UHGV virus genome: UHGV-1366828
DNA from: a virus
Length of the DNA: 64,000 nucleotides
Strand: one strand, 5' to 3'
Of this stretch, positions 1 to 63,383 are shown one piece after another (position 1 is the stretch's first letter; each line of letters starts with the position of its first letter). The notes below the pieces were generated by a model. The model did no database searches. It was not told the origin of the DNA and saw only the letters and a program-made list of their open reading frames with translations. The translations under genes were made by a program, and so were the position numbers.

Positions 1-3000
1 CTGTACCACTGTTTACTATAGGAGCGGAATCCTGCCAAGTAAACGACACTGTTACTTCTTCAGCATCACCAACTTTGTTTTTGTACTCACCTGTAGGAAC
101 AACAGAAGAATCATTCTCGTCATATACAACGGTGGGAGCAGAGACAAATGTAACATTGTCGACAGTTAACATGTACCAACTCTTTAAAGAGCTAGTATCA
201 TTCAAATCTTTAATTGTAACTTCGGATAATGTTAATGTTTTTGAAGAAGATACAACTTTACAGATTATTACAACTTGACCTCTAACATCAGTTCTAGTTA
301 CTGTAACTTTATCCGACGTAGATGTAAGATATTGAATTAGGATTATACTTTCATCTGCAGGGGCTGTATTGAATTTAATTGTATCTTTATCAACAACTGT
401 AAATTCTGTAGTAGTAGTTCCGTTTATTGTAATTTCTACTTTAGGACTTGTCGTTGCATTTAAAATGTCAAGACCTAAGTCAAATGTTGTTGATGTTCCA
501 TTTCCAGTAAACCGCTCTTTAGCAAACCAGTTTAACTGTCCTATTGTTGTAGCCCCGTCTTTTACAACACCTGTAGCACTTACTGTTAGTTGTTTAACTC
601 CGAGATAAACATCTGCACTCAATGTTGTAGACATAGCTTTTGCATTGAATAGTGTCCCGTTATCTGCTTGAATTTCTACAGACAGAACGCTGTCTCCATA
701 TACACCGATGATTAAAGCATCTGTTACCGAACCAGACGTGTCGCCATTTGTATAAGTTATTACAGAATAGTTCCAGAGGTATCTATTGGTGGCATCCATT
801 GACGGAAGGTTCGTAGACCATCCTGTTGTTGGTCGAGTTGTTGTGGCACTAAGCGCGTAATACTCAACAATGCTAGTTATTCCAACACCAGCAGAACCTG
901 GTTCGCCTTGTGAGCCATATGCGCCTATAATACACGGGTCTGTATATGTCGATACTGTGTTGCTGTATTTAACCTCTTCATAATTCCATAAATAAGGTTT
1001 GTCAGAACTTATTGTCTGGATATCTGTTGTCCAGCCTTCCGTGTCTCTTGTTACACCTGTACTTACATTGGTTGCTAGATAATAATTTAGGACTGCTGTA
1101 ATACTTGTTCCATCTGCGCCGTCTTGACCATTCTGCACTAGAATTACAGGTGTTGCCCATTCGTCTGGAGTAATTGTGTCTGTATTTTCTACAGACGCTG
1201 CTGTTGCCGCTGTAACATATAACGGGTCTGTTCCTGAAGGGATTGTAGAACTCCACCCAGTAGGAACAGTTGTAAGCTTCTTTGTCGTAAAGTTGTAAGT
1301 TAGGGTAGTAGTCCAGTTAATTGTTGCAGTAGTTGCGCTACGTTTGTACAAGTATACAATGGCAGTATTAACACCATTAGTACCATCTGTACCGTCTTTA
1401 CCGTCTGTGCCATTTTGGCCCGGTGCGCCGTCTTCAACTAATTTAACAATTGAGCTCCATTCAGAAGGGAGTATTGTGTCAGTAGCTTCAGAACTTACAG
1501 CTGTTGCTTGAATTGAAAAGCACGGATTTCCATCAGATGCGGGAATTGTTCTTGACCATCCTGCAAGATTTCCTGACAGTTCTCCTGTAGCAAAAGTATA
1601 TGTTAAATTGACTGTTGGTTTAGTCAATCCCGTGTCTGTAGAAGCTCTCTTGTAAAGAAATATAGAAGCGGTATTCAGACCATTTGTGCCGTCAGTTCCT
1701 GGTGCACCATCCTGACCATTCTGCCCATTTTGCGCAAGTATAACAGGTGTTGCCCACTCAGATGAGGGAATTGAATCGTTACTGGTGTTGGAAGATGCAG
1801 TAGCTGCTGTTACAAAAATCGGAGCTGTGCCAGACGGTATTTCTTCATACCAACCTTTAGGAACATTGGTTATTGACTTTGTGTCAAAGTTGTATATTAA
1901 ATCATTTGTCCAGTCAATTGTTGCGGAGTCAGCTCTCTTGTAAAGATATACAACAGCGGAGTTTCTACCGTCAGTTCCGTCTTTACCGTCAATACCATTG
2001 GTGCCATTTCTGCTTACTGAGTAGGAGGTAGAGCTTGTATCATCTGTATATTCAATGACTGTTCGTGTCCATAAGTACTGACCCGACCCAGTAGCATCAA
2101 TTGTATCCTTCCATCCTGTTTGTGGAATATCCGTTCCACTATCCGAAACAACATATGAAATTGTTGTCTGTTTGATGCCTACACCGTCAGCACCCGGACT
2201 ACCGTCAGTACCATTTACGCCATTCTTACTTACAGAATAAGATACGGAAGATGTGTTATTTGTATACTCAATGGTTGTCCTTGTCCACAAGAATTTACCT
2301 TGAGCAACTTCTGGAATGTCCGCCTGCCAACCTGATTGAGGAAACTGAACACCATTATCAAAAACAGCATACTCAATAGTAGTGGTTTTAATTCCGATGC
2401 CTGCTTCGCCGTCTTTACCATCTGTACCATTTTTACCATCTGAAACTAACTCAGTAATACTGCTCCACTCTGACGGAGAAATTGTATCTGTCTCGCCTGT
2501 GCCGATGGCTGTCGCCTGTATAACAAAACAAGGATTTCCGTCGGAGGCAGGAATTGATTGTTTCCATCCACCGAGTTGTCCTGATAAAGTTCCTGTTGCG
2601 AATGTATATGTTAGTGTTCCTGTAGGCTTTGTAATACTGCTAGCAGATGCAGCTCGCTGGTAAAGAAAAACAGCAGCTGCACTTAATCCAGGAGCACCCT
2701 CCTCACCAGGTGCAGAATACATCGAGATTACTGTAGGAGTTGTTTCTTTACTGTCTCCTGTTGTGTAGTGAATAATCTCGTACTTCCACAAATACTTATT
2801 CTGTGGTGTAGGAGTAATAGGGTTGTCTCCCCAAACCGCTGAACCTTTGGCGGGAGGATTTTCGGGGTCGTTGTTCAAGGCGAACTTGTCTTCTATGTCT
2901 TGAATACCTTTTCCCGTTTCTGCAAAGGTTGTTATAATATGAGGACTTGTTTTTATATATCCCGATATAGTATAATGTGTAACCTCTGCATTCCACAGAT

Positions 3001-4432
3001 ATTTATTGCTTGCAGAAAGTTCGAGAGAACTCATGTCCTGAGTCCAACCAAGATCCGTCCATTCAGTTTCTACTTCAATGTCCGCCGTAGGAGAGGTTGG
3101 GGTGTTAGTATTGTTTGTTACAATATACCAATCTACTACAGGTTGGTCAATGTAATCAGAGTTACCATCTTTAGCTAACACTGTTGGAGCGGACCACGAA
3201 TTCTTTTGAATCGTATAAGTATCTCCATATCCGATAGCTGTTGCTTGTGTCACATAACAAGGATTGCCGTCCGTATTAGGAATGGTTAACGACCAGCCAT
3301 CAGGAGAGGTAGGTTGAATAGCTCCGGTACTAAATGTATAGGTCACTGCAGTTGAAGGAGTTGCAGGGGTACTTCCATAACGCTTATATAAGAGAACTGT
3401 TTTGGAATTAAGACCACTGGTACTAAATAAGGTAGGAATTGACCATTCTGCTGGAAGGATAGTTGCTTGAGCTGTTATAGAACTTGCAGTTGCTGCTGTT
3501 ACGTATAAAGGCTCTGAGCCAGAAGGAATCTCTTCACTCCAGCCTGCTGGTGCTGCAGTTAATTTTTTGTTATCAAAATCGTATGTAAGATTCTCTGTCC
3601 AATCAATTGCTGTAATCTCATCGACAGAACGTTTATATAGATATACTATTGCAGAGTTTGTACTTACACGGGAGACACCAAACGCACTATTTGTTTTACC
3701 ATCTGAAAATCTAGTGTACGTCCATGACCATAAGTAAGGGTTAACATCTGTTGTTTTTGGGGGGTTAGGAAACCATATTCCGCTTTGTGTAATATCAGGA
3801 GGAGTTGTACCGTTACTACTTATAGCATACTTAACATACGTTTCTTCGATTGTAGCACCTGAACCTGCAGAACCTTGTGCTCCTTGTATACAGGTCATAC
3901 TACGCATGATAGTTCCATCTTCATATGTGACAGTTGTTCTTTGCCACATAAACTTTCCAGGCCAATACTGAGGTGCTTGCTCAGACCAATTACTAAAGCT
4001 GTCGTAGTGGTCTTGATAGTTAGACAATGAGTATTGAATTGAAATTGCTTTTACATTGTTGGAATACTTATCGTTCAGCTTTTTCAGGGAATCCGGAGTG
4101 ACTTCACCTATCAGCGTATTTTCTGATAGATTTGTATTTACATTTACTACAAGAGAGTCTGCTGTGATGTCGGTAGACCCTTCAGGCATACCTTCACGAT
4201 AAAGTAATCCAATTATGATTGGGAATGAAAGATCGTCATTCTCAAAATCAACAATAACAACATCGCCCTCTTGATAGTTAGGGCTACAACCAGGTAAGGT
4301 TTGGATTGTAGCTGTGTATAATTCATTTGTAGGGGTAGCTGTAGGATCGGACTTTACTTTATTGTATACTGGTATCCGAACCTTCATGGAATACTTATCT
4401 AGTTTCTTTTCAATAATTGCTTTCTGTAACAT
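1..4432 (-). CDS. giant tail fibre / receptor-binding protein with collagen-like Gly-X-Y runs; partial because the C-terminal end lies beyond the window edge
   Basis: ATG at 4432-4430 preceded by GAGAGGG, then one open minus frame with no stop down to position 1 (>1,470 codons), so it is absent from the ORF track. Six Gly-X-Y runs (e.g. DGKNGTDGKDGEAGIGIK, QNGQNGQDGAPGTDGTNG) alternate with recurring '..YLYKRA..W..L.Y.F.T..GW...IP....P.YVTAATA.S......EW..P' modules; the other two minus frames here hold only short ORFs. Confidence 0.7.
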   Translation of the reverse strand, partial: MLQKAIIEKKLDKYSMKVRIPVYNKVKSDPTATPTNELYTATIQTLPGCSPNYQEGDVVIVDFENDDLSFPIIIGLLYREGMPEGSTDITADSLVVNVNTNLSENTLIGEVTPDSLKKLNDKYSNNVKAISIQYSLSNYQDHYDSFSNWSEQAPQYWPGKFMWQRTTVTYEDGTIMRSMTCIQGAQGSAGSGATIEETYVKYAISSNGTTPPDITQSGIWFPNPPKTTDVNPYLWSWTYTRFSDGKTNSAFGVSRVSTNSAIVYLYKRSVDEITAIDWTENLTYDFDNKKLTAAPAGWSEEIPSGSEPLYVTAATASSITAQATILPAEWSIPTLFSTSGLNSKTVLLYKRYGSTPATPSTAVTYTFSTGAIQPTSPDGWSLTIPNTDGNPCYVTQATAIGYGDTYTIQKNSWSAPTVLAKDGNSDYIDQPVVDWYIVTNNTNTPTSPTADIEVETEWTDLGWTQDMSSLELSASNKYLWNAEVTHYTISGYIKTSPHIITTFAETGKGIQDIEDKFALNNDPENPPAKGSAVWGDNPITPTPQNKYLWKYEIIHYTTGDSKETTPTVISMYSAPGEEGAPGLSAAAVFLYQRAASASSITKPTGTLTYTFATGTLSGQLGGWKQSIPASDGNPCFVIQATAIGTGETDTISPSEWSSITELVSDGKNGTDGKDGEAGIGIKTTTIEYAVFDNGVQFPQSGWQADIPEVAQGKFLWTRTTIEYTNNTSSVSYSVSKNGVNGTDGSPGADGVGIKQTTISYVVSDSGTDIPQTGWKDTIDATGSGQYLWTRTVIEYTDDTSSTSYSVSRNGTNGIDGKDGTDGRNSAVVYLYKRADSATIDWTNDLIYNFDTKSITNVPKGWYEEIPSGTAPIFVTAATASSNTSNDSIPSSEWATPVILAQNGQNGQDGAPGTDGTNGLNTASIFLYKRASTDTGLTKPTVNLTYTFATGELSGNLAGWSRTIPASDGNPCFSIQATAVSSEATDTILPSEWSSIVKLVEDGAPGQNGTDGKDGTDGTNGVNTAIVYLYKRSATTATINWTTTLTYNFTTKKLTTVPTGWSSTIPSGTDPLYVTAATAASVENTDTITPDEWATPVILVQNGQDGADGTSITAVLNYYLATNVSTGVTRDTEGWTTDIQTISSDKPYLWNYEEVKYSNTVSTYTDPCIIGAYGSQGEPGSAGVGITSIVEYYALSATTTRPTTGWSTNLPSMDATNRYLWNYSVITYTNGDTSGSVTDALIIGVYGDSVLSVEIQADNGTLFNAKAMSTTLSADVYLGVKQLTVSATGVVKDGATTIGQLNWFAKERFTGNGTSTTFDLGLDILNATTSPKVEITINGTTTTEFTVVDKDTIKFNTAPADESIILIQYLTSTSDKVTVTRTDVRGQVVIICKVVSSSKTLTLSEVTIKDLNDTSSLKSWYMLTVDNVTFVSAPTVVYDENDSSVVPTGEYKNKVGDAEEVTVSFTWQDSAPIVNSGT

Positions 4433-7296: not shown

Positions 7297-7306
7297 AGGC
7301 TAATCC

Positions 7307-7621: not shown

Positions 7622-7632
7622 ACACCGCTACC

Positions 7633-15875: not shown

Positions 15876-16414
15876 TTACCCTCCTCGTTAAATGTTGGAT
15901 ATTCAAACATTGAATCATTCTCCTGATTTAGAAGATTGAAACTTGAATCAGAATAATCTTCAATTTCCGTCTTCACTAGTGTATCTTCATACTCTGGAGC
16001 GATTTCACAAGCTACTGAAGAGGGAAAAATCATAATGTTTGAAATCTTTATTACTCTAAACAATCTGCCTTCACTGTTATCAAGTCCTCCCGGAACAACA
16101 AATAAAGCTCCTTGTTGTAAATCTGGCAAGTCATATCTAACATGAATAATAGAGCTTGTATCTTGTAATTCAGATACCCAACCTAATTTCTTCAATGTTT
16201 GTTGCGATGGGTAGTCTTCAAAGATGCAATATTCCAACATAGGCTTCTGGTAGTTACTTTCTATTTCAGCATATGTTGTATAGTGTTTATCTTTAGCAGG
16301 AGCTCTATAGATAACACGTATTCCAAGAAGTTTTGCCATTTCTTTGAAATACATACGATGTAGTTTTGTATTAGAATTAACTAATAACCCATAATTTTCA
16401 TCATACGGGGTCAT
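15872..16414 (-). CDS. hypothetical head-tail joining region protein
   Basis: 180 aa ORF, operon-coupled. Confidence 0.4.
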   Translation of the reverse strand: MTPYDENYGLLVNSNTKLHRMYFKEMAKLLGIRVIYRAPAKDKHYTTYAEIESNYQKPMLEYCIFEDYPSQQTLKKLGWVSELQDTSSIIHVRYDLPDLQQGALFVVPGGLDNSEGRLFRVIKISNIMIFPSSVACEIAPEYEDTLVKTEIEDYSDSSFNLLNQENDSMFEYPTFNEEGK

Positions 16415-16463
16415 CTATAACACCTACCTTACTAAATTAAAATCTCTTTGTAAATAGTTAACG

Positions 16464-17783: not shown

Positions 17784-17829
17784 TTATTAAATCTCCTCGT
17801 CTATTTATCCGAATAATTATCCGACGTCA

Positions 17830-18567
17830 TCAATCAACCGCATTGTAGAAAAGGGCTGTGTTTGACGACAACGTTTGTCTTAACTCTTGCAGCTCAGAGG
17901 TTCCTTCAGCTAGAATATCTCGACCGTCTTGCGTCCATATTGCATTCGACTGTGTGTACCTACTACGAACTCTTCCTGCTACAATCTTTGTTTTAGCTAC
18001 AGCCATCCGTATCAAAACATCCGTCCAATAATCTGAAGTGATTTCAGACACATCTTGATAGATTGGTATATATTCTACAGTTATATTACTTGGAGCATTA
18101 CTTGCAACATTTATATACAATTTTTGTGAGTCTCTGTCGTATATATATGCCAGATCCGTACTAGTCGTATTTCTCATCTGAAGGATAGTGTTATACGACA
18201 TGTAATTCAGCATATAATCCTGAAAGCCTCTCATGTTACCTGTTCCCGAGATTAACTGCCACTGTGCTGCTTGCATCGGATCTACAGCTTTTGTCAACGA
18301 TGTACTAGCCTCTCCGTACCCTTCTGTACGATAAACTCTAAATACATTGCTGACGTATATCTTCTGGTCATTAGTTTGCTTTGGATCCGATAAGTCAATA
18401 CAACGACTAAAAGGAATGGTTACAATCTTTGTACTGGTTATGTAGCGTTGTAATTCTCGTAGAGAGCTAGCTATGATGCTGTCTACAGTAGTTGGGGTTA
18501 ATTCTAATTCAAGTAGTTGACCTGTGAGCATCAATGTGACTTCGTCACGAACTTGATCCTGTGTCAT
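17830..18567 (-). CDS. hypothetical structural protein
   Basis: 245 aa ORF. Confidence 0.4.
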   Translation of the reverse strand: MTQDQVRDEVTLMLTGQLLELELTPTTVDSIIASSLRELQRYITSTKIVTIPFSRCIDLSDPKQTNDQKIYVSNVFRVYRTEGYGEASTSLTKAVDPMQAAQWQLISGTGNMRGFQDYMLNYMSYNTILQMRNTTSTDLAYIYDRDSQKLYINVASNAPSNITVEYIPIYQDVSEITSDYWTDVLIRMAVAKTKIVAGRVRSRYTQSNAIWTQDGRDILAEGTSELQELRQTLSSNTALFYNAVD

Positions 18568-26024: not shown

Positions 26025-26555
26025 TTATTTGTTCTTGTCCCACTTCTTGTCATACCAGGAAGGAGCATCGTATTCAACTAGCCCTGATTTCAATAACGCG
26101 ATTTCTGTGACTGTCTTTCCGCCGACACTAAATTGAACAAGAATGCCATCATAGCCCTGTTCTCTAGCTATCTTGTGATAAAATACTTGTAAATCATCCA
26201 GACCCGTGGACATTCTATAGAAAGAATCTTTATACTTAATATATACAAAATTTCCTTCTTTAGTACGTTCACGAGCAATTATTCGTGTTCCAAGAATATC
26301 GTTCAAGTCATTTCCTAAATACACACTGGTTACATCAGGCTGTTTTCCAAGGTCTATGAGATTGACTTTATCTAAATCTATTACAGAGGTTAACAGGGCT
26401 CCTTCGTCATCTGTACCGTCTTGCCAATATGATGTAGCCTCGTCTTTGGAAACAGTCCACCACTCAGCTCTTCCGTCCCCTTCTACATTCGGCTGTAGAC
26501 CTTTAATAACCCCTCTATAGACTGGAATTTTTTCTTCACGTAGTAAAAATCTCAT
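26025..26555 (-). CDS. hypothetical protein
   Basis: 176 aa; overlaps the SWIM protein gene by 4 nt. Confidence 0.4.
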   Translation of the reverse strand: MRFLLREEKIPVYRGVIKGLQPNVEGDGRAEWWTVSKDEATSYWQDGTDDEGALLTSVIDLDKVNLIDLGKQPDVTSVYLGNDLNDILGTRIIARERTKEGNFVYIKYKDSFYRMSTGLDDLQVFYHKIAREQGYDGILVQFSVGGKTVTEIALLKSGLVEYDAPSWYDKKWDKNK

Positions 26556-27415
26556 TCGGCGTTCTCCGAATCTGAAATTAGATTATCAAAATCAATCTGT
26601 CGTTTCATTGGCCTGTTCTGCTTTTGGAATCTGTACTCGTTACCCTTCTGGAACTGTGTCTTAGTTCTTGCCCACTTGTTGGCAACATTAAGTAGATCTT
26701 TATCTGCACTAACTGAGATGTCGGGTTGTCCTTCTTCTGGTTTCTCCTCAGGCGGCTGTAGTTGTAGCTGAACATCGCCCGTATACTCACGTTGATATAT
26801 CGCAGGATATATTACATCTGCATACATGTTAGGGTAATGTTGTTCCATGTATCTGATGTAATTAAAGATTACAGAAGCTACTTTAGTTAGCCAACTATTA
26901 TTTGACAACACTAACAGTATATGTTTGCAACCCCTGCCCTTGGTGTCATTTGGGTTTGTAATATTAGAAGGCCTAGTTTCCTTGTCTCCTACAATAATGT
27001 CATGCACGCTTAGATAATAGCCAAATCTATACTGAAAATCGGGACAACTACATCTAACGTAAACATTCTCCCCGTTAAAGGAGCTTACAAGAGCTCTGAT
27101 AACACACCGTAGGTTTAATACGTCATTGTTTGCTGCTAGTTGTTTGTGTATTTGGTCAAGTACTTCTCCAAAACTGATTCGAACAATATAATCGTTAGTT
27201 TCTCCTCTTACTTTTACGTCTACGTCAAGAATGTTATTCTGGAAGAACTTATTCATATCAATGGAATTCATTTCTCTTACAGAATTAGCAACTCTGCTAT
27301 GTAGACGTCTTTCATAACGATTCTTTCCACGAAACTGATTTTCAGGAGCATAATTATCTGCGTGTTTTGAGTTTGAAATCAGCTCTTGTCTCTTATCTTC
27401 TAAAAGTTTGTTCAC
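26552..27415 (-). CDS. SWIM zinc-finger domain protein
   Basis: 287 aa; 'RCSCPDFQYRFGYYLSVHDI...GRGCKHILLVL' fits the SWIM CxCx(n)CxH signature (C-x-C-P-x-F ... C-K-H-I). Confidence 0.55.
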   Translation of the reverse strand: MNKLLEDKRQELISNSKHADNYAPENQFRGKNRYERRLHSRVANSVREMNSIDMNKFFQNNILDVDVKVRGETNDYIVRISFGEVLDQIHKQLAANNDVLNLRCVIRALVSSFNGENVYVRCSCPDFQYRFGYYLSVHDIIVGDKETRPSNITNPNDTKGRGCKHILLVLSNNSWLTKVASVIFNYIRYMEQHYPNMYADVIYPAIYQREYTGDVQLQLQPPEEKPEEGQPDISVSADKDLLNVANKWARTKTQFQKGNEYRFQKQNRPMKRQIDFDNLISDSENAE

Positions 27416-28415: not shown

Positions 28416-29153
28416 TTACTCCTCAAATAGATTTATAAACTTCCCTGTGTATATGTAATGTTCAAGGGACAATTTTCTTGACAAACAATTCGTTAACGCT
28501 TCCTTCAATAAAGAAAGCTCTCCTCGGTCACGTAACGTTTTAAAGATTTCATTCCCTCTACCGTATTCTCCTTCAATAGAAATTGAATTCTTTCGCATTA
28601 AGTAGAGGGCATCTAAAACATCAGTAATCTGCTCGTAGTCCTTTGACGTAATTGCCGCGTGAATTCTTTCAGTCCAAGCATCTAATTCTTGTGTTAGATC
28701 TCGCTTCTCAATCGTAATTGGTTTGGGTTCTTTCACCCACTTATTTCTACGAATAGAATAAATACCGTTAGATTGAACGGACGAATGTAAATCTTCAACA
28801 TAGAGTTCAACAGGAATTTCTTTTATCTTTATGTCAAATTCTTTATTGAAAGCTGTCTTCTTTAGATTAAAGACTAACGTCTGTATATCTTCAGGAACAC
28901 CTTCTGTTAGTTCAGTGTTAACAATTAAGTGAACATCGATGTCGGAATGCTGTGTATAGTTGTAAGATGCATTACTTCCTACCAAAACTACATCTACAAT
29001 ATGCATCGGTATTTCAACATACTCTTCAAAATTGTCTGCAATTTCAAGTAGCTTTTGTCTAACTTCAGGTATCAATGTGTTATCTTTCCATAACTTTGGG
29101 TTTAAAGTTTCATGCAACTGAAAATCTTCAAGTACGTTCTTCATATGTCTCAT
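28416..29153 (-). CDS. Pol-beta superfamily nucleotidyltransferase (KNTase/ANT(4')-like fold)
   Basis: 245 aa; 'VVLVGSNASYNYTQHSDIDVHLIV' matches the hG[GS]x9-13Dh[DE]h motif. Size and N-terminal helix resemble kanamycin nucleotidyltransferase. Start overlaps the upstream small ORF by ATGA. Confidence 0.6.
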   Translation of the reverse strand: MRHMKNVLEDFQLHETLNPKLWKDNTLIPEVRQKLLEIADNFEEYVEIPMHIVDVVLVGSNASYNYTQHSDIDVHLIVNTELTEGVPEDIQTLVFNLKKTAFNKEFDIKIKEIPVELYVEDLHSSVQSNGIYSIRRNKWVKEPKPITIEKRDLTQELDAWTERIHAAITSKDYEQITDVLDALYLMRKNSISIEGEYGRGNEIFKTLRDRGELSLLKEALTNCLSRKLSLEHYIYTGKFINLFEE

Positions 29154-29419
29154 AAAAGATCCGCCAATCTAATAATGTCTGAACTAGAAATCTTATTATT
29201 ATGGTGAAGAGCAGTATGTGCGCTGCTTCCGTGTTCAGAGCTTTTTCTTACCAGACTAAGATTAGTTATACTATAATTAGAGTGGTCTTTATCTTCATGA
29301 TGTAACACCCAATCATCAGGGTCAATTGAAACTCCTGTAAGATACTGTACTAAAGCACACACTACTTTTTTGGCTTCGGTCTGCCCTCTAAATCCTTCTT
29401 CTAGTAATTTAAATCTCAT
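29150..29419 (-). CDS. small protein translationally coupled to the nucleotidyltransferase
   Basis: Probable start at internal ATG 29419 (MRFKLLEEGFRGQTEAKK..., 89 aa); the longer 135 aa ORF would overlap the QueH-like gene by ~150 nt. Confidence 0.35.
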   Translation of the reverse strand: MRFKLLEEGFRGQTEAKKVVCALVQYLTGVSIDPDDWVLHHEDKDHSNYSITNLSLVRKSSEHGSSAHTALHHNNKISSSDIIRLADLL

Positions 29420-29939
29420 TCTTTGAATACTCACACCCACAATAATTCTGTTGATATAAATTATACTTCTCGCACAGTTGCAATGATCTAGGAAACAGAT
29501 ATCCGAAATCAAACGGCATATACATAACTCCCACAGACCCGCCAACAGCGGTTCCAATACTGTTTATAACAGCTGAATCTTTATACGGACTGATTGTTAA
29601 TGTAGTTGAAAAATATCCAAATCCATTATTGTTTGCATATATTGCAGCACCCTTCAATCTCTGACCGATACATACCTTGCATCTTTTTCCACCCTCGGGT
29701 TCATTACTTAAAGAAGAACATGCGTTATAATATTCCTCCGGATAGAAATCTGCAATAACTACCGGTACATTATAAAGTTTACCGAGTCGGATAAGCTCGT
29801 CGGATCTTTTATAGTATTCAATTTCATCTGTAATACAAGGATTGTAATAATACAACGTTATATCAAAATACTTTGAGTACTCATCAATAACAGCACTACT
29901 ACAGGGTGCGCAACAAGCATGAAGTAATAATTTATCCAT
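29409..29939 (-). CDS. queH: QueH-family (DUF208) epoxyqueuosine reductase homolog
   Basis: 176 aa from ATG 29939 (GGAGG 11 nt upstream). 'MDKLLLHACCAPCSS...YYNPCI...EPEGGKRCKVCIGQRL...TTLTISPYK...LYQQNYCGCEYS' matches conserved QueH Cys motifs (LLLHxCCAPCS, EPEGGxRC, NYCGC). Confidence 0.65.
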   Translation of the reverse strand: MDKLLLHACCAPCSSAVIDEYSKYFDITLYYYNPCITDEIEYYKRSDELIRLGKLYNVPVVIADFYPEEYYNACSSLSNEPEGGKRCKVCIGQRLKGAAIYANNNGFGYFSTTLTISPYKDSAVINSIGTAVGGSVGVMYMPFDFGYLFPRSLQLCEKYNLYQQNYCGCEYSKNEI

Positions 29940-29956
29940 CTGTTCAGTTCCTCCGA

Positions 29957-31369
29957 TCAATTCTTTTTCCACATGTAACATGACTGACCACAATCATATA
30001 TCTCTACAAAACTGTGTGCGATCATTAACTCATCGTTTGATGTTCCTTTACCATAATGTGTTCCAAATAGCTGGTCAAAGCCTCTTTGTCTTAACAGGTT
30101 GTCTGTAATATGTTGACCCGTGTTTATGTTAAACCAGTGTCGTGTTGGAATACCATAATCGCGAAGTTCAAACCCCAAGGAAGTATAAACGTCGCCGTTA
30201 AATTTACTGTTATCACAATAGGATATAATGGACGACGGAGAATAGTTCTTTACAAAATAACTAAATAACTTTTCAGCTCCGCCAACTACATATCTGTGAG
30301 AACAGTATCTTATAAGCTCGTATTCGTAATTCTTGTTATATCTTGGACGACCGAACGTCATAATTGAAACTAGTTCATCATTACAGTAAAGTCCCAAATC
30401 AATTGTGCTTTTAGCATAACCTTGTAGATGATATTTGTTCAGATAATTTATACAATCTTTCTTGTTGACTTGTTTTACAACACAGTTACGAGCATATACT
30501 TTTTCTCTGGGCAGAAGCAAAGAAACAATTTTATCCCAATCATCCCAATCCCAAACATGAATACATCTATAGCCGTTATCTTGAGCTACTTTACTCTTCT
30601 TATAATGATAATCTTTCTGAAGTGTTGTTGACCCAGGAATAGGACAGAATGTCACGTTGTGACAAGGCCAAGGATTTATTTCTATAAGAATGTCGTTTAC
30701 TTTGAAGTCGTATTTAAAATGTTTGTTGTCATATCCGATGTAGAATTCTCTTGTATATTCAATTCCTGCAGTATCCAACAATTCTGAAAACTTGGCGTTA
30801 GGCTTACTATCATTTGTATATTTTGCAAGGGCAAAAGAATTTACAACTCCATACTTGTCAAGGTTTGTAGCTGACCTTGCATGTTTAGCATGCTCAATCT
30901 TTTCTGGAACATTGAAATAATGTTTGTATCGTTCTTCAATTAGATGTTGTAATTCTTCATGAGATTTTTTACCCCATGCAGCTTTACAACCTTCCGACAC
31001 CTTTTCATAATGTTCTTCTTTTGTTATCCCCTTGCTTTGTAGATTGGCAAGCATCGTAGCGTAAACTTGTTTGTCATATTTTTCTTTGCTTCCTGCATTC
31101 TTATACTTAGTTTTAAGAACTAACCTTGCAGACTGCTTGCGTGGCTTTCTTATACCGTATTCTTTTATGACTTTATCTAATGTCCAAGATGTAATGTTGT
31201 ACTTCTTCATCAGAAAGTCATAAGTACAGTTTTTATTCAAATATAAATCCGTAATTTCTTCACGTGGAATTTTTGACAATACATTCTTTTCAAACTTTTC
31301 TCTGTTAATTCTTTTAAGAGTTTCTGATGTTCCATTAGACATTTTACTGTTACTCCTGTGTGTAAACAA
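29957..31369 (-). CDS. free-standing homing-endonuclease-like protein (N-terminal repeated DNA-binding modules, Vsr/PD-(D/E)xK-like core, conserved C-terminal domain)
   Basis: 470 aa; paralog of 31457..32959 (C-terminal ~190 aa clearly alignable: KVYARNCVVKQV...YHLQGY...MTFGRPRY..YEYELIRYCS..GGAEKLF). Core 'DFKVNDILIEINP...GYRCIHVWDWDD' resembles the nuclease segment of the fragment at 63416..63709. Confidence 0.5.
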   Translation of the reverse strand: MFTHRSNSKMSNGTSETLKRINREKFEKNVLSKIPREEITDLYLNKNCTYDFLMKKYNITSWTLDKVIKEYGIRKPRKQSARLVLKTKYKNAGSKEKYDKQVYATMLANLQSKGITKEEHYEKVSEGCKAAWGKKSHEELQHLIEERYKHYFNVPEKIEHAKHARSATNLDKYGVVNSFALAKYTNDSKPNAKFSELLDTAGIEYTREFYIGYDNKHFKYDFKVNDILIEINPWPCHNVTFCPIPGSTTLQKDYHYKKSKVAQDNGYRCIHVWDWDDWDKIVSLLLPREKVYARNCVVKQVNKKDCINYLNKYHLQGYAKSTIDLGLYCNDELVSIMTFGRPRYNKNYEYELIRYCSHRYVVGGAEKLFSYFVKNYSPSSIISYCDNSKFNGDVYTSLGFELRDYGIPTRHWFNINTGQHITDNLLRQRGFDQLFGTHYGKGTSNDELMIAHSFVEIYDCGQSCYMWKKN

Positions 31370-31375
31370 ATAAAA

Positions 31376-31410
31376 AAATATGGAGAAGGGAGCTAAAGTC
31401 CCCTCCCCAT
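31376..31410 (-). terminator. candidate intrinsic terminator between the two tandem homing-endonuclease-like genes
   Basis: Minus strand GGAGGGGACTTTAGCTCCCTTCTCC followed by ATATTTTTTTATTTG; contains the 11-nt motif AAGGGAGCTAA also found at 34810-34820. Confidence 0.35.
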
Positions 31411-31456
31411 AATATATTATAAGGTGTTTCTAAATTGTAAACAACTTGACCGTCTC

Positions 31457-32959
31457 TCAACTGAAAAATGTGTACTTGGCTTGACCCGCATCATATACCT
31501 CTACAAAACCGTGTTGAATCATCAGTTCTCTATTTGATGTGCCTTTACCATAATTGGTATGAAACAGATTGTCAAAGCCCACTTTGTTTACAGAAGAATC
31601 TAGTATATGTTGTTTACTATTCATGTTGTACCAGTGTTTACTAATATTTATACTTTCCAAGGTCATGTTTAATTTCTGGTACACATTACCAGAAAATTTG
31701 CTCATATCACAGTAGGAAACAACCGATTTTGGAGAATACTTCTTTACAAAATAATCAAACAGTTTCTCCGCTCCTCCAATAACAGACTTACAACTACAAT
31801 AACGAATCAACTCGTATTCATACTTATCTGTATACCGAGGTTTACCAAACGTCATCAAAGAGATTAAATCGTCATTGTAAAATAGACCGACTGCTATGTC
31901 CGAAGATATATAACCTTGTAAATGATAGTTATTTAGAAACTCTTTCGTTTCTTCTTTAGGTAGTTCTTTAACAGTACATTTTCTGGCATATACTTTTTCT
32001 TGAGGACGAAGTAAAGAAATTATCTTCCCCTTATCATCCCAGTCCCAAATATGAATACACCTGTAACCATTCTGAGAAGCTAACCTAGATTTGTCTCTAT
32101 GATATGTAGGACTTTTAACGTTATCATCACCAAAAGGTGACCATGTTGAATTGTGTGTAGCAGAAGGATTTACTTCTACTAGTATATTTTGTCCTGTTAA
32201 TTCAAAATCAAAACTTTTGTTAATAAGTGTTTTTTCTCTACTGAATTCTATGTTGTTATCAGACAACAATATTCCAAATTCTTGATTAGGAGAAGATAGA
32301 CTGCTGTTCCCCTTACTAAATTGACATTGAGGAAGCAATGTAGGAAACTCTACTCCATACTTTTCTAAGCATGTTTGCTTCATGCTCTCTATAGCTTTTT
32401 CACGACTGCCAGGAAGCTGAGAAACATTTGTTATACCGTATCGTTCAATCAAGTTATTTTTCTGAGATTCTGCTATATGATCATAGGCTGCAGAAATTGA
32501 ACCATAAGTTCTAATAAAACCTTCTTGAACTAGGTCAACACGTTGAAAAGGATTGTCTACACCATATCGTTCTTGGCAAGTCTTTTTAATTTTCTTCCGA
32601 ATATCTGTGTTACCCGAAGCTGATGGTGTCCCGTATCTTTCAATACACGTTTCCTTAATCTTTTCTGTGTTGTTGTAATTAGGGTCTCCATATCTAGACT
32701 CTTTGGATTGCTTTATCCGATTCTTTATCGTATCGGATTTTGACGGATTGTCTACACCGTACTTCTCTATGCAGGTATATCTAGTTTCCTGTTGTCTACT
32801 ATGAATCGGAATGCCTTGTTTCTCAAGAGCATTAACAACTACATACTTTGACGTATTATAATGTTTAGAAATATAATCCGCAGAGTGCGAACTATACAAC
32901 CTTTCCAGTTCTTCTTTGTTTACAAAATCAAGAAATAGCTGTGTTTTATTTTTTCTCAT
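31457..32959 (-). CDS. free-standing homing-endonuclease-like protein (paralog of 29957..31369)
   Basis: 500 aa; N-terminal repeated ~25 aa 'YGVDNPxQ...I(K/R)xT' modules (at least 5); core 'FDFELTGQNILVEVNP...GYRCIHIWDWDD'; conserved C-terminal domain. Confidence 0.5.
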   Translation of the reverse strand: MRKNKTQLFLDFVNKEELERLYSSHSADYISKHYNTSKYVVVNALEKQGIPIHSRQQETRYTCIEKYGVDNPSKSDTIKNRIKQSKESRYGDPNYNNTEKIKETCIERYGTPSASGNTDIRKKIKKTCQERYGVDNPFQRVDLVQEGFIRTYGSISAAYDHIAESQKNNLIERYGITNVSQLPGSREKAIESMKQTCLEKYGVEFPTLLPQCQFSKGNSSLSSPNQEFGILLSDNNIEFSREKTLINKSFDFELTGQNILVEVNPSATHNSTWSPFGDDNVKSPTYHRDKSRLASQNGYRCIHIWDWDDKGKIISLLRPQEKVYARKCTVKELPKEETKEFLNNYHLQGYISSDIAVGLFYNDDLISLMTFGKPRYTDKYEYELIRYCSCKSVIGGAEKLFDYFVKKYSPKSVVSYCDMSKFSGNVYQKLNMTLESINISKHWYNMNSKQHILDSSVNKVGFDNLFHTNYGKGTSNRELMIQHGFVEVYDAGQAKYTFFS

Positions 32960-33108
32960 CTAGCTGTCTCCTTACAGACATATAAGTAAATCAAGCAGTA
33001 ATCTTGAAGTAAGGTTCAAGAAACAGTTTCGAACCTGCTGTCCTGCTTGATGTGTAACACTTTATACAATTTTGCTAGAGGGTCTGTTCCTTTGAGTATT
33101 ATTTATCC

Positions 33109-34131
33109 TCAGGCCTTGATCTTACCCGCTACCAGGAGGCTAGGATTGAGAAGCTTCAGGTCGTACATCGTACTCCAGCCTTGTGTGGTTCCACCATCGG
33201 CGAACTGAAGCAGCTGAGTAGGAACAACGCTCATGTAAGGAGCATAAACAGCGGCGGAGCTCATTAAATCGCTGCCGTTGACACCTACAATGAACTTACC
33301 AGCTTCAAGAGCAGGAGAAACGAACACCTTAAGAGAACCGAGAGTACCAGCGAAGTAAGGACCGTTAACATCGCTCACAGGAGCAGGAGTCCAGTCACGA
33401 ATGAAAGCAAACACCGGAAGAAGGTCGCTGGCGCAAATCATGTAGTTAGGAACAAATTTCTTTGTACGGTCGTACACTACGCGCTTGGCATCTTCAACAG
33501 TTTCCATGAATCCCTGATAGTGCTCTGTTTTGGAAACACCTACATTAGGAGTCTTGCTCCATTCAAGGGTTGTGTCGGTCGGGGTATTGTCGATAAGAAG
33601 CTGAACAACTTCTGTGTCGATTTCATATTCGAGCTGACCAACAGCCTTCTCTGCAAGCTGGTCACCAAGGTCGAAACCGTAGTCGGTCTTAGCCTGGAAA
33701 GCAGCAATCTGAGAGTAGTAAACAGCGATACGACGAGCCTTCGCAACAAGAGCGATATTCTTCATCTCTGCCTTGAGCATCGGAAGGTCGTTCTGAGGAA
33801 CAACTACGTTGTCGTAGTAATAAGCTACACGGTCAGTGGCAACAAGAGTTGTGGTAATTGTCTTGCCGTCAGCGCCAACATTCACATAAGTGGGATCACC
33901 AGTTGCGTGAGTAACCTTAACGTCGTACTTAACGCCGTCCTTCTCAAACGCGCCCTTAACAACAGGAGTCCAGGAAAGAGCAAGAGAAGCACCAGCCGTC
34001 GGAGTTTCAACAACACGGTCACCAGTGTAATCAGCATCGACATCGCCGAGAGCGAACGGGCTGTTCAGAAGCTTACCAGCAGTGGTCTGACCCTTGGTCT
34101 TACCAGCAGTATACTCAATGTAAGTTATCAA
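33109..34131 (-). CDS. major capsid protein (putative)
   Basis: 340 aa; follows the protease/scaffold-like gene in head-module order; markedly GC-richer, codon-optimised composition typical of the most abundant virion protein; strong hairpin downstream (33040-33070). Confidence 0.55.
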   Translation of the reverse strand: MITYIEYTAGKTKGQTTAGKLLNSPFALGDVDADYTGDRVVETPTAGASLALSWTPVVKGAFEKDGVKYDVKVTHATGDPTYVNVGADGKTITTTLVATDRVAYYYDNVVVPQNDLPMLKAEMKNIALVAKARRIAVYYSQIAAFQAKTDYGFDLGDQLAEKAVGQLEYEIDTEVVQLLIDNTPTDTTLEWSKTPNVGVSKTEHYQGFMETVEDAKRVVYDRTKKFVPNYMICASDLLPVFAFIRDWTPAPVSDVNGPYFAGTLGSLKVFVSPALEAGKFIVGVNGSDLMSSAAVYAPYMSVVPTQLLQFADGGTTQGWSTMYDLKLLNPSLLVAGKIKA

Positions 34132-34157: not shown

Positions 34158-34742
34158 TTATACTAATTTTTTGAAGGGATTTGTTAACCTTCCTCTAACA
34201 TAACCTTCAGGAGGATCGCCAATAAACATATGCTCTTCTTTTCCGTTATTCCACCAACGAGAACCTTTATGTGCTTCTATACTTCTTTGTATAGAATATT
34301 CCGTGGGTTTCTGCCCTTTACTAGATTCTCTCATCTTGAGAATTGTTTCTTCTGAGCGTTTCTTACCAGTATTCGCTTTAGCTCTTTTTAGTTTAGTTTC
34401 TTCAGATTGTTTTTTTCCTGTCCAGTAAGCTAACTTGTACCTTAATTCTGGAACAAGATTAACATTACCGTCTCCACCATCAGTTAGATTATACCCATTA
34501 GGATATCTACACTGTAGCGTTTCAATCCAGAAACTTTCTTTTTCGTTTAATTCTTCAAGAGTTTCAGCTGTATCAATAAGCTCTCGCGAAAAATTTTCTA
34601 GCCCATAGAACTTAATGCTACTTTTAATATAAGTTCCGCTAGTAATGTAATTCTCATCAAGTTTTGGAAAAGAATATTTATGTTTACCAACATACACTTT
34701 ATGTGTAATCAGGTTTGTTAGTTTATACACATAACCATACAT
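34158..34742 (-). CDS. GIY-YIG homing endonuclease with NUMOD3-like repeats
   Basis: 194 aa; N-terminal 'YGYVYKLTNLITHKVYVGKH...' matches GIY-(x10-11)-YIG; C-terminal 'TGKKQSEETKLKRAKANTGKKRSEETILKMRESSKGQKPTE' are NUMOD3-type repeats as in I-TevI/Seg proteins. Confidence 0.75.
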   Translation of the reverse strand: MYGYVYKLTNLITHKVYVGKHKYSFPKLDENYITSGTYIKSSIKFYGLENFSRELIDTAETLEELNEKESFWIETLQCRYPNGYNLTDGGDGNVNLVPELRYKLAYWTGKKQSEETKLKRAKANTGKKRSEETILKMRESSKGQKPTEYSIQRSIEAHKGSRWWNNGKEEHMFIGDPPEGYVRGRLTNPFKKLV

Positions 34743-50725: not shown

Positions 50726-51919
50726 TTACTTCTTCCGTTCTTGCATTTCCTTAATCACTTTGTCAATATCGTGTGCAACTTTTATGAAATCGTTTTTCTT
50801 GTATCCCTTAGTTGTCATAGCTGCTGTTCCAATACGAACACCTGAAGCCTGTTGAGGAGAACGAGTTTCTGTTGGGACACAATTCTTATTTAAAGTAATA
50901 TGATGTTTGTCCAATTCGTCTTGTACTTCTTTTCCTGTTAGGCCTGTTGCAGTTAAATCAACAAGGAATAGATGATTGTCTGTACCTCCAGTAACTATCT
51001 TATACCCCATAGAGATAAACTCGTAGCACATCGCCTTGCAGTTACCTACAACGTCGTGTATGTAATTCTTAAACTCTTCTGTACAAGCCTCTTCTGCGGC
51101 CACAGCCTTTCCGGCAATTACGTGTTCAAGCGGCCCACCTTGTGTACCAGGGAAAATTGTACTGTCAACTTTCTTAGCAAGTTCTGGCTTACAGAAAATA
51201 AGACCTCCGCGTGGGCCTCGAAGTGTTTTGTGAGTTGTTGTAGTAATAATGTCGGCAAGACCAAACGGTGAGGGGTGATCTCCTGCAGCTATAAGACCTG
51301 CAATATGCGCCATGTCGACCATAAAGTATGCGCCGACAGATTTAGCAATCTCTGCAAACTTTTCAAAATCAATTATACGACTGTAAGCGGAAGCTCCAGC
51401 AAGAATAAGCTTCGGACGAAACTCTTCTGCCTTACTCTTAACATCATTGAAATCAATAAATCCTTCGGCATCAACATCATAAAATTTCATGTTGAATAGC
51501 TTTCCGCTGAAGTTAACAGAAGAGCCATGAGTAAGATGACCACCGTTATTAAGTGACATAGCAAGAATAGTGTCTCCAGGCTTAAGAACACTCATGTATG
51601 CAGCAAGATTAGCACTAGAACCGCTGTGAGGTTGAACATTTACATGATAATCAGTGTTAAATACCTTACGCCACATATCACAGCAGTATTCTTCAAGTTC
51701 GTCAATATATTCACAACCACCGTAATATCTGCCCTTACTTCCCGATTTGTGATTTGCTGGGTAGCCTTCAGAATACTTATTTGTCAAACATGAACCGACA
51801 GCCTTTAAAACATTTTCACTTACAAAGTTTTCACTAGCAATCAATTCAACTGTCGTATCTTGACGGTGCTTCTCTTTTTCAATGATGTCAAATACTTTGG
51901 AATCCAATTTTACCTCCAC
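50726..51919 (-). CDS. glyA: serine hydroxymethyltransferase
   Basis: 397 aa; 'VELIASENFVSENVLKAVGSCLTNKYSEGYP', 'VQPHSGSSANLAAY', and the PLP-lysine region 'TTTTHKTLRGPRGG' are canonical SHMT motifs. Confidence 0.85.
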   Translation of the reverse strand: MEVKLDSKVFDIIEKEKHRQDTTVELIASENFVSENVLKAVGSCLTNKYSEGYPANHKSGSKGRYYGGCEYIDELEEYCCDMWRKVFNTDYHVNVQPHSGSSANLAAYMSVLKPGDTILAMSLNNGGHLTHGSSVNFSGKLFNMKFYDVDAEGFIDFNDVKSKAEEFRPKLILAGASAYSRIIDFEKFAEIAKSVGAYFMVDMAHIAGLIAAGDHPSPFGLADIITTTTHKTLRGPRGGLIFCKPELAKKVDSTIFPGTQGGPLEHVIAGKAVAAEEACTEEFKNYIHDVVGNCKAMCYEFISMGYKIVTGGTDNHLFLVDLTATGLTGKEVQDELDKHHITLNKNCVPTETRSPQQASGVRIGTAAMTTKGYKKNDFIKVAHDIDKVIKEMQERKK

Positions 51920-55281: not shown

Positions 55282-55788
55282 TCACCGAGTGTAAGGAGTG
55301 AGCTGGTAGTCACCGACCTTGTAGATGTTGTCAATCTTGATTGTGGCGATAGGACGAGACTTCTCATTGAAGTAAGAATCACGAACCATCTCGCGCATCT
55401 CTTCGTCCAGGTCGTTAAAGTGATATTCCGAATGACCAGGAGTTACCAGTATGTAGGACACCTTCTTGTTGGTGCCTTTCTTTGTGGGGAATACCCGAAG
55501 GTACATCTGCTCCGTATCAGTGTTCTGATAGATACGACCTCTCTGAACAGGAACAATGTGATTCTTACGAGTATGAGTGACTTCCGAACGACCTTCGCGT
55601 TCCTCAACGACAGACTTAATCTTGCCGTAGTTAACACCGGTACGAACAGTGGACTCAGTCTTTTTAAGGATCTTCCAGCCTTCTTTGGCATAAGCAGCCT
55701 TCACGGGCAGCTCAGTAATATAACCGATACGGAAGAAAGTGCCAGACCGGATGCCGCCCAGGGCTTCTTCAAGAAACGAGTAAGTCAT
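55282..55788 (-). CDS. hypothetical basic protein, compositionally GC-rich (probably highly expressed)
   Basis: 168 aa; the antisense +strand ORF 55246..55791 is rejected; Lys/Arg-rich. Confidence 0.45.
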   Translation of the reverse strand: MTYSFLEEALGGIRSGTFFRIGYITELPVKAAYAKEGWKILKKTESTVRTGVNYGKIKSVVEEREGRSEVTHTRKNHIVPVQRGRIYQNTDTEQMYLRVFPTKKGTNKKVSYILVTPGHSEYHFNDLDEEMREMVRDSYFNEKSRPIATIKIDNIYKVGDYQLTPYTR

Positions 55789-55859: not shown

Positions 55860-56108
55860 TTACTTGTCAAGTTTCTTGATATCTCCACAGTAAAGGAGAA
55901 ATTCAAAATGTTTATCAACAAAGCTGGCTCCATAATAGCCTGGGGCAGTAAGAGTTACAAATCCGTCGCTGCCGTTCTTCAGACTTGCTTCTGTATATAC
56001 GGTATCTTCTACCCTGGCAGCCCTAAACGGAATATTGTCCGGAATTAACTTGACAAGATACTTCACATCTTCGGGAAAACGTATATAATTTTCCTTCTTC
56101 TTTGCCAT
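55860..56108 (-). CDS. hypothetical protein
   Basis: 82 aa ORF. Confidence 0.35.
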   Translation of the reverse strand: MAKKKENYIRFPEDVKYLVKLIPDNIPFRAARVEDTVYTEASLKNGSDGFVTLTAPGYYGASFVDKHFEFLLYCGDIKKLDK

Positions 56109-61585: not shown

Positions 61586-62326
61586 TTAAACCCCCGAGCT
61601 TCCAAAACCACCGGCACCTCGGTCAGTGTCATCGAGATTGTCTACTTCAATAAGCTCTGTTGTGATACAAGGAAGGATTGTAAACTGAGCAATACGGTCA
61701 CCATGATGAATGACCTGAGGCTCGTCACTGTCGTTCCGAAGAACAACCATCCATTCCCCTCGATAGTCACAGTCAATTATTCCGGTACTATTTGCAAGAC
61801 GAAGGCCTCGCTTACAGCCCATGCCGCTACGAGCATAAACAGCAGCAAAATATCCCTTCGGAATAGCTGTTGTAAAACCAGTGTGAAAAGAGAAAGAGCC
61901 ATGAGGAGGAACAGTTTCAGCAAGAGCTGCACTAGAACCCAGGTCAGCGTAAATGTCAAAACACGCATCTGTTTCATGCGCCTTTGTGGGAATTGTTGCT
62001 GTATTTGAACACTTCTTAATATGCATACTAACAAGAGGAGACACTTCATTTGTTATGTACTTAGTTATATATGACATAAACCCTGTTTCCAGATCGTCTA
62101 CAGCATCTTCATTCTTGTTAGCCTGATATCTCTTTCGATATTCAGCAACTGTGCAATGATTTGCGCTAGAATACTGTTCCGGAAGTACTGCACCATCAAA
62201 CTCCCAGTTACAGTTATCACAGATCCAAAAAGAATCCAACGTAGGTTCTCCACAGATAGGACACTTAACAATAGTGTACCCATACTTCTGAAATTCTTCA
62301 GTTTTCTTCAGCTCTTCAACTGTCAT
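61586..62326 (-). CDS. dut: dUTP diphosphatase with N-terminal zinc-ribbon extension
   Basis: 246 aa; N-terminal 'CPICGEP...CDNCNW'; dUTPase motifs 'ACFDIYAD', 'RSG', 'GIIDCDYRGEWMVVLRN', 'RIAQ', C-terminal 'RGAGGFGSSG'. Confidence 0.85.
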   Translation of the reverse strand: MTVEELKKTEEFQKYGYTIVKCPICGEPTLDSFWICDNCNWEFDGAVLPEQYSSANHCTVAEYRKRYQANKNEDAVDDLETGFMSYITKYITNEVSPLVSMHIKKCSNTATIPTKAHETDACFDIYADLGSSAALAETVPPHGSFSFHTGFTTAIPKGYFAAVYARSGMGCKRGLRLANSTGIIDCDYRGEWMVVLRNDSDEPQVIHHGDRIAQFTILPCITTELIEVDNLDDTDRGAGGFGSSGV

Positions 62327-63161: not shown

Positions 63162-63238
63162 TGGTACTCGGTACTGGGCTTGAACCAGCGACCCCATGCT
63201 TGTAAGGCATGTGCTCTAACCAGCTGAGCTAACCGAGT
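63162..63238 (-). tRNA. tRNA-Val (anticodon UAC), CCA encoded
   Basis: Minus strand ACTCGGT-TA-GCTC-AGCTGGTTA-GAGC-A-CATGC-CTTACAA-GCATG-GGGTC-GCTGG-TTCAAGC-CCAGT-ACCGAGT-A-CCA. Perfect 7 bp acceptor and 5 bp anticodon stem; T-stem 5 bp including one G-U; canonical D and T loops. Confidence 0.75.
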
Positions 63239-63296: not shown

Positions 63297-63383
63297 TGGT
63301 GGGCCGAGCTGGAATCGAACCAGCCGAGCATTTAAGCACCTGATTTACAGTCAGGTCCGCTACCTTCTACGGAATACCGGCCC
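63297..63383 (-). tRNA. type II (long variable arm) tRNA, most likely tRNA-Tyr (anticodon GUA), CCA encoded
   Basis: Minus strand GGGCCGG...CCTGA-CTGTAAA-TCAGG-(14 nt variable arm)-GCTGG-TTCGATT-CCAGC-TCGGCCC-A-CCA. Anticodon and T arms perfect; D-arm register ambiguous by eye. Confidence 0.6.

Follow-up and report, generated by a model that had tools for sequence, protein, structure and literature searches.

A QueH homolog as a selected, mobile accessory gene of human-gut T4-like myoviruses, with a possible role in queuosine completion on tRNA

The DNA analyzed here, a 64,000-nucleotide stretch of the virus genome UHGV-1366828 (the window), carries on its minus strand a gene for a homolog of the epoxyqueuosine reductase QueH. 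The gene, queH, is mobile and under purifying selection, and belongs to the accessory genes of a family of T4-like myoviruses from the human gut. Its product is QueH by family, fold, ligand cysteines and purifying selection, and is predicted from the same features to be catalytically intact. In these phages QueH travels with a transporter of the QPTR/YhhQ family and a homolog of the DNA transglycosylase DpdA. This gene set is the notable part of the finding, and the trio is undescribed in the papers that could be searched. On balance we favor the view that QueH completes queuosine (Q) at position 34 of host and phage tRNAs during infection, and we weigh below the alternatives that the trio brings to mind. 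The gene and its translation signal are:

29409..29939, minus strand: queH, 176 amino acids (aa) plus stop, ATG start; QueH homolog of a phage-specific clade
29950..29954, minus strand: Shine-Dalgarno GGAGG, read from the sequence, 10 nt upstream of the queH ATG

The original prediction took this open reading frame (ORF) to be QueH on the strength of its cysteine motifs, and family, fold and selection now bear the assignment out. The motifs are LLLHACCAPCS (residues 4-14), EPEGGKRC (80-87) and NYCGCEYS (165-172). The Pfam profile QueH (PF02677) matches the protein end to end, with residues 4-175 lying on profile positions 1-175 (E=1.6e-54, 185 bits against a cutoff of 23.5); a search of NCBIfam gave no match at E<=0.01. 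Compared by phmmer with Thermotoga maritima QueH (PDB 7lc5), the phage protein gives E=1.7e-22. Its AlphaFold2 model (pLDDT 94, pTM 0.90) aligns in Foldseek with 7lc5, 7lc7 and 9d86 at TM 0.90-0.91, rmsd 1.6 Å and E~1e-15, the next-best folds after T. maritima QueH reaching TM 0.6 or less. A longer, TTG-started ORF that extends to 29993 is an artefact of the ORF listing; gene calls on metagenomes give the 176-aa protein.

Alignment to T. maritima QueH, proposed earlier as a check on the metal ligands, leaves them in place: none of C9, C10, C13, C87, C90, C167 and C169 varies across 44 aligned homologs, and the set aligns with the T. maritima motifs. The cysteines of CCxPC, CxxC and CxC are, we take it, the ligands of the [4Fe-4S] cluster and of the adjacent iron site, the assignment of each metal to its cysteines being likewise assumed. 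Position 13 is Cys in the phage QueH and in all 43 other aligned homologs, and Asp in T. maritima; in a first alignment, Cys13 was found in 18 of 19 other sequences, with T. maritima the exception. The T. maritima Asp13 is the residue mutated (D13N) in PDB 9dco, and the phage protein follows the family consensus. Among phage QueH orthologs the ratio of nonsynonymous to synonymous substitution rates (dN/dS) is 0.046-0.093, with dS up to 2.7. The phage clade also has changes of its own. At residues 141-163 there is a 2-aa deletion and both conserved lysines of FKK are lost, PSDFKKxxGY becoming PFDFGYL--F/Y. In YRQxYCGC, R is replaced by Q at the position of T. maritima R165; Q is also present in the E. 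coli prophage QueH. The alignment places the deletion, the lysine loss and the R to Q change close to the C-terminal Cys motif.

The window is part of an uncultured human-gut T4-like myovirus of ~140 kb, and comparison loci are cited below by L numbers. The exact QueH protein is present on eight metagenome contigs of up to 140 kb, L001 and L013 are 100% identical to the window across the overlap, and the relatives of the window come from human gut metagenomes. Every window gene lies on the minus strand. Matches in Pfam and PHROGs include a T4-type portal, Gp23 capsid, S77 prohead protease, tail sheath and gp19 tube; baseplate, tail lysin, two LLH holins, CHAP/lysozyme and serine hydroxymethyltransferase are matched as well. 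The anaerobic ribonucleotide reductase genes NrdD and NrdG lie in the window flank. These hallmarks, the gut metagenome relatives and NrdD/NrdG together lead to the assignment given above, and to a host that is probably an anaerobic member of the Bacillota. No near relative at the DNA level was found among GenBank phages. The closest isolates by portal protein (~30% identity) are myoviruses of Streptococcus, Listeria and Bacillus (Firmicutes).

Genome content beyond the window was followed in relatives. A 133.6-kb IMG/VR contig, 93-98% identical to the window, was read from NrdD to its end, and 7 kb were added from a gut contig related at 94%; with the window and its flanks, ~128 of ~140 kb were covered, and the genome searches reported below refer to this coverage. 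Pfam matches in the relative genome include PolA, DnaB, primase, clamp loader, RecA, RNA ligase with repair-type domains, and peptide deformylase. The RNA-repair-type set there (loci L247/L253/L300/L302) consists of RNA ligase, a cREC_REC cyclic-phosphate domain, an AAA_33 kinase, Metallophos and HD, accompanied by the peptide deformylase, and suggests that the phage counters tRNA-targeting defences.

The position of queH differs among related phages. The gene order in the window clade is major capsid protein (MCP), a homing endonuclease in some genomes, QueH, an HNH gene in some genomes, and a nucleotidyltransferase-fold (NTase-fold) gene. In a sister clade the NTase-fold gene follows MCP directly, and QueH lies 37 kb off, between homologs of window 55860..56108 and 55282..55788. 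In distant relatives (PolA 38% and RecA 39% identical) a QueH of 54-66% identity is part of the replication module and follows either RecA or the pair of clamp and Cas4-like exonuclease genes. Another phage-like contig has a 205-aa QueH. QueH is retained at three or more genome positions.

A rough neighbour-joining tree, drawn without bootstrap support, groups the window-group QueHs with 43 further metagenomic ones in a single, phage-only clade of 49. All 49 are short forms, one ORF having been over-extended by the start-codon rule. None of the 80 closest bacterial species-genome QueHs falls inside the clade; the closest are <=52% identical and come from gut Clostridia. A QueH-like gene is present in only 25 of 50,697 GenBank phage records, many of them short unannotated fragments. 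One record is the complete lambdoid Escherichia phage HannyBb (PP925841.1, L393), with a QueH labelled hypothetical at 33011-33697 in a nin-like region; no tRNA genes, DpdA, QPTR, tRNA-guanine transglycosylase (TGT) or QueA were found in its genome. Of 5426 complete E. coli genomes, 995 (~18%) have HannyBb-type queH in Qin-like prophages, under the RefSeq name QueH; in E. coli NZ_CP014111.1 (L310) the prophage QueH is at 7022-7687. The PHROGs entry for QueH, phrog_3217, reads "unknown function". Most IMG/VR QueH matches (L022-L092), all ~37% identical and taken from prophage calls in isolate genomes, are assumed to be one bacterial species' gene caught at prophage borders. A survey of viruses found homologs of QueA, QueG and QueH absent from those analyzed (Hutinet 2019; PMC6884629), and no paper discussing a phage QueH was found in the searchable literature. 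The phage gene adds a member to the known QueH family; its phage context is undescribed in searchable papers, though RefSeq annotates QueH in E. coli prophages.

The genes that co-occur with QueH lie ~36 kb beyond the right end of the window, beside PolA, as seen in relatives 93-98% identical to the window rather than on the window contig itself. One of these, L302 (IMG/VR contig 3300045988_128299, 93-98% identical), encodes at 16118-16900 a QPTR/YhhQ-family protein with about six hydrophobic segments (PF02592, Vut_1, E=2.8e-16, 60.7 bits against a cutoff of 27.2). A 307-aa DpdA homolog is encoded at 17500-18420, the second gene downstream of QPTR. It matches the DpdA of phage 9g by phmmer (E=1e-17) and phrog_887 (E=3.3e-39), and shares the DSG and S-x-D motifs with 9g DpdA, D57-S58-G59 and D212 being invariant. 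Pfam gave no match to this protein and NCBIfam only a weak match to TgtA; screening for the Q/DpdA pathway with Pfam alone is therefore insufficient, as it missed DpdA, which was found by phmmer with 9g DpdA and by PHROGs. QPTR and DpdA are also present at L016:5709-8048, where the QPTR homolog scores 64.1 bits against TIGR00697 (cutoff 50.95), and in L394-L396. The order in the T4-like clade is PolA, QPTR, nucleoside deoxyribosyltransferase, DpdA, SDR, clamp; in a second lineage it is PolA, DpdA, GDSL hydrolase, QPTR, clamp, Cas4-like exonuclease, RecA, with QueH before or after RecA. QueH, QPTR and DpdA are all present in nine of ten contigs with readable context.

Other genes of the 7-deazaguanine pathways were sought over the same ~128 of ~140 kb. 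Queries with E. coli Tgt and QueA gave no phmmer match at E<10 in the window, its flanks or the relative genome, and PF01702 and PF02547 were absent from the Pfam results. Queries with FolE, QueD, Gat-QueC and QueE of phage 9g likewise gave no match at E<10, nor did these appear in the Pfam scans; QueG was not found in the phage regions examined. The statement made earlier that DpdA, QueC, QueD, QueE and FolE are missing from the window itself agrees with the phmmer (E<10) and Pfam results. The wider search it recommended was partly productive: DpdA and QPTR came to light in the relatives, and TGT, QueC/D/E and FolE were not found. A 444-aa radical SAM protein considered as QueE or the queuine lyase QueL was rejected; it is a radical SAM/SPASM peptide maturase of the CXXX-repeat target family (L210:993-2324, TIGR04115, 408 bits), followed at L210:2334-3137 by a Cys-rich 268-aa ORF without a family match.

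What may QueH do for these phages? To our knowledge, the only reaction of QueH is the reduction of epoxyqueuosine (oQ) to Q at position 34 of tRNA. By this reading, the phage QueH would carry out the two-electron reduction of oQ to Q at position 34 of GUN-anticodon tRNAs during infection. The substrates would be host tRNAs and the phage's own tRNA-Tyr and tRNA-Asn, with tRNA-Asp added in a relative. Bacterial TGT, which exchanges the base, and QueA, which transfers the ribosyl group, act before this step and would have to come from the host, since neither was found in the ~128 of ~140 kb covered. A QPTR/YhhQ protein of the phage, with its gene at another place in the genome, would probably import the 7-deazaguanine precursor. 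Phage genes may thus cover the first (import) and the last (oQ to Q) step of the salvage route of gut Bacillota, and Q completion would become independent of the host's supply of B12-dependent QueG or of QueH. A decoding benefit to the phage would be expected to follow. Gut Bacillota are mostly users of Q precursors that lack QueDECF and keep bTGT (PMC11130926), and a review records an increase of Q in infections with another phage, Shewanella phage 1/4 (PMC13191261). Q-decoded (NAU/NAC) codons make up 200 per 1000, ~20% of phage codons. In HannyBb, QueH stands without DpdA, QPTR, TGT, QueA or tRNA genes, so that only host tRNA is available as its substrate. E. coli's own epoxyqueuosine reductase is the cobalamin-dependent QueG. 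The known reaction, the stand-alone coliphage QueH, Bacillota salvage, and the match of QPTR and QueH to its first and last steps are the grounds on which we favor the tRNA role.

The tRNA genes at the right end of the window, from which the phage's own substrates would come, are:

63297..63383, minus strand: tRNA-Tyr(GTA), ARAGORN; U33-G34-U35, encoded CCA
63162..63238, minus strand: tRNA-Val(TAC), ARAGORN; not a Q substrate, start of the tRNA cluster

The tRNA-Tyr(GUA) read earlier at this place is real by both ARAGORN and Rfam, the gene on L013, identical to that of the window, scoring 34.9 bits against a gathering threshold of 29. The window genome has 18 tRNA genes in a cluster that runs on past the right end of the window (L013:3319-10811), and Tyr(GTA) and Asn(GTT) are the only Q substrates among them. 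A relative ~94% identical overall (97.8% in the shared stretch) has 21, with Asp(GTC) added (L210:13314-20658). The cluster counts 18 to 20 genes and varies in content by strain: Asp and Phe are present only in the relative, and one slot is called as Arg(ACG) in one strain but as Cys(ACA) in another. The cluster also includes an unusually long 'Ile(TAT)' tRNA and a DUF2828/DUF7788 gene. The original prediction had coupled QueH to tRNA-Tyr as a Q-target partner. A specific pairing is rejected: tRNA-Tyr is one of 18-21 tRNAs, a sister phage whose QueH is 74% identical has tRNA-Leu in the slot beside tRNA-Val and no tRNA-Tyr there, and HannyBb has no tRNA genes. The main reading made earlier is plausible, but its coupling to tRNA-Tyr was too specific; after the action of host TGT and QueA, tRNA-Tyr is a plausible candidate substrate of QueH rather than its dedicated partner.

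Several observations weigh against the tRNA role. The U/C bias of codon use is not distinctive: the NAU share is 51-65% in Q boxes and 66-75% in other two-fold boxes; the capsid gene favors NAC. The link between QueH and tRNA-Tyr is not conserved. Near the C-terminal Cys motif, the clade-specific changes may have reshaped the surface that meets the substrate. That the trio persists even where PolA identity has fallen to 38% may point to one shared pathway, and since DpdA adjoins QPTR in the same genomes, precursor import may be for DNA modification instead of tRNA.

These last points lead to a 7-deazaguanine DNA-modification system, an alternative that is stronger than the original prediction assumed because DpdA and QPTR lie ~36 kb past the window and co-occur with QueH. 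In such a system QPTR would import preQ1, preQ0 or queuine, DpdA would exchange the precursor into DNA, and QueH would reduce an epoxyqueuosine-like base to 2'-deoxyqueuosine (dQ). The epoxyqueuosine-like base would arise in DNA through a host QueA-type step or by direct insertion of the epoxy form. Hutinet 2019 saw no dQ in phage DNA and tied this to the missing QueA, QueG and QueH in phages (PMC6884629). The DpdA homolog has kept the DSG and S-x-D motifs and adjoins QPTR. Six related contigs have DpdA-GDSL-QPTR and, 3-7 kb downstream of it, QueH, all reading in one direction as a single block. Phages whose PolA proteins are only 38% identical still share the trio, and basic residues close to the active site have been lost from the phage-clade QueHs. 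Against this, no QueA homolog was found by phmmer (E<10) or Pfam in the DNA covered, and we know of no QueA that uses DNA as a substrate. In the window-type genome QueH is ~70 kb from DpdA and QPTR and moves independently, and in a complete lambdoid phage it stands alone. The protein is ~50% identical to ordinary bacterial tRNA QueHs and keeps all conserved cysteines. Every DpdA tested so far inserts preQ0 (PMC10516641), and none of the 25 GenBank phage records that match QueH is a DpdA phage named in Hutinet 2019. We regard a place for QueH in DNA modification as unlikely, and the same holds for the two routes to its epoxy base; a scheme in which DpdA, a precursor imported by QPTR, host QueA and a surface-altered QueH together place dQ in phage DNA is doubtful to a further degree. 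If true, dQ would be a ninth, bulkier 7-deazaguanine DNA modification.

QueH could also modify tRNA for the evasion of defence, an altered oQ/Q state shielding GUN tRNAs, or the phage tRNA-Tyr and tRNA-Asn, from host anticodon nucleases. Nucleases of this kind that target the tRNAs for Tyr, His, Asn and Asp are known, among them colicin E5 and effectors associated with retrons, and close relatives of the window phage have the RNA-repair-type genes (RNA ligase, cREC_REC, AAA_33 kinase, Metallophos, HD) together with a large tRNA set. Nothing, however, ties QueH to any defence system, and a change of nuclease sensitivity between oQ and Q is without support, which makes this role improbable.

It is also quite improbable that QueH acts on a free or salvaged epoxyqueuosine nucleoside or base, so that oQ or epoxyqueuine, whether imported or derived from tRNA, would become Q or queuine for use by TGT or DpdA. 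T. maritima QueH has been crystallized with free queuosine (PDB 9deu) and with GMP (7lc7), the basic residues lost in the phage clade might contact the RNA backbone, and the genome has a precursor transporter with a nucleoside 2-deoxyribosyltransferase-family protein adjoining. However, the sister clade and the second lineage lack the deoxyribosyltransferase, neither such an activity nor an environmental pool of epoxy forms is known, and the proposal is extrapolation throughout. That QueH is a functionless passenger of homing endonucleases, of which three strain-variable genes flank it, is contradicted by its dN/dS of 0.05-0.09, its invariant catalytic cysteines and its presence in genomes without flanking endonucleases (L008, L011) and at endonuclease-free sites (L012, L016), and can be dismissed.

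The neighbors of queH in the window are:

28416..29153, minus strand: nucleotidyltransferase-fold protein, 245 aa, downstream of queH (PF01909 E=5.9e-5, phrog_36119)
29150..29419, minus strand: small HNH endonuclease, 89 aa (PF13392 HNH_3 E=5e-4, below the Pfam cutoff)
29957..31369, minus strand: homing-endonuclease-like gene, 461-470 aa, directly upstream of queH (phrog_3339 E=5e-56)
31379..31411, minus strand: terminator-like hairpin, 13-bp stem and T-run, between the two homing-endonuclease genes (consensus scan only)
31457..32959, minus strand: second homing-endonuclease-like gene, 500 aa, DUF7487 (phrog_3339 E=7.7e-75; PF24308 on L001)
33109..34131, minus strand: Gp23-type major capsid protein, marking the late-gene site of queH insertion (PF07068 Gp23 on L001, phrog_138)

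The small HNH gene overlaps the final 11 nt of queH; it is present in L009/L195, and L007/L008/L010 are without it. The homing-endonuclease-like gene directly upstream of queH is variable among near-identical genomes and is missing in L008/L181, where MCP adjoins queH. The second such gene is a paralog of the first and is likewise variable, being missing in L002/L003. The consensus scan found no terminator-like site between the hairpin and queH. Four homing-endonuclease genes in all surround the capsid gene, the HNH gene at 29150..29419, the DUF7487-type genes at 29957..31369 and 31457..32959, and a GIY-YIG gene at 34158..34742, and they vary in presence among genomes that are 93-99% identical. 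One relative has an intein within the homolog of window 26552..27415 (L003 12525-14621). The NTase-fold gene follows the capsid gene directly with or without QueH and adjoins MCP in L178-L180, which have no queH there. It is a neighbor of queH and not a partner, and was rejected as such since it stays beside MCP where QueH is missing. A methyltransferase-like gene, MT209, was also rejected as a partner, being itself variably present; PDB sequence searches with the NTase-fold and methyltransferase-like genes gave no match.

Other genes of the phage hint at a separate nucleotide or DNA-modification metabolism. The window encodes a phage serine hydroxymethyltransferase (50726..51919, minus strand; PF00464 E=9e-155), for which an exact-protein look-up gave no match, and a dUTPase/dCD-like gene at 61586..62326; genes for NT5C, DUF1599 and the nucleoside deoxyribosyltransferase lie outside the window, in the relative genome (L247/L253/L302). 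At the left end, window 1..4432 (minus strand) is seemingly free of ORFs; it is the 3' portion of a gene for 1858 aa that runs off the window (L014 12865-18441) and probably encodes a tail fibre or tape-measure-like protein.

Gut bacteria and their human host compete for queuosine, a tRNA modification that resembles a micronutrient. QueH recurs as a selected phage gene, in a gut myovirus clade and in lambdoid prophages of ~18% of complete E. coli genomes, and in the gut myoviruses genes for a precursor transporter and a DpdA DNA transglycosylase accompany it. Given this trio, the phages appear to act on the 7-deazaguanine economy of the infected cell at import, at the last tRNA step and at the DNA step. 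The predictions are testable: the phage would control the Q/oQ state of tRNA in infection, and deoxyqueuosine may occur in DNA.

Comparison with known systems places the phage protein close to bacterial QueH (DUF208, PF02677; T. maritima 7LC5), which it resembles in family, length, fold and the CCxPC...CxxC...CxC pattern. Its identity is 30% with the T. maritima enzyme and <=52% with the QueHs of gut Clostridia. Like the T. maritima enzyme, it is without the ~25-aa N-terminal extension of most Bacillota QueHs. It differs from bacterial QueH in the 2-aa deletion, the lost FKK lysines and the Q for R in YRQxYCGC, and from the T. maritima enzyme in having Cys13 instead of Asp13. QueG carries out the same oQ to Q reaction on tRNA (PMC11130926), with an unrelated fold and a cobalamin cofactor. 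The QueH of E. coli prophages and HannyBb is likewise a phage-carried, lone accessory gene with Q for R in YRQ, but it is only 37% identical, outside the gut-phage clade and in the nin-region context of temperate lambdoid phages, and the HannyBb genome has no DpdA, QPTR or tRNA genes. The nearest precedent for the transporter and transglycosylase is the group of phages with DpdA only and sometimes YhhQ (Hutinet et al., 2019, 2023). The close relatives of the window phage resemble it in having DpdA beside YhhQ/QPTR and no FolE, QueD, QueE or QueC. Those surveys found QueA, QueG and QueH in no virus, whereas here a Q-specific enzyme co-occurs with DpdA.

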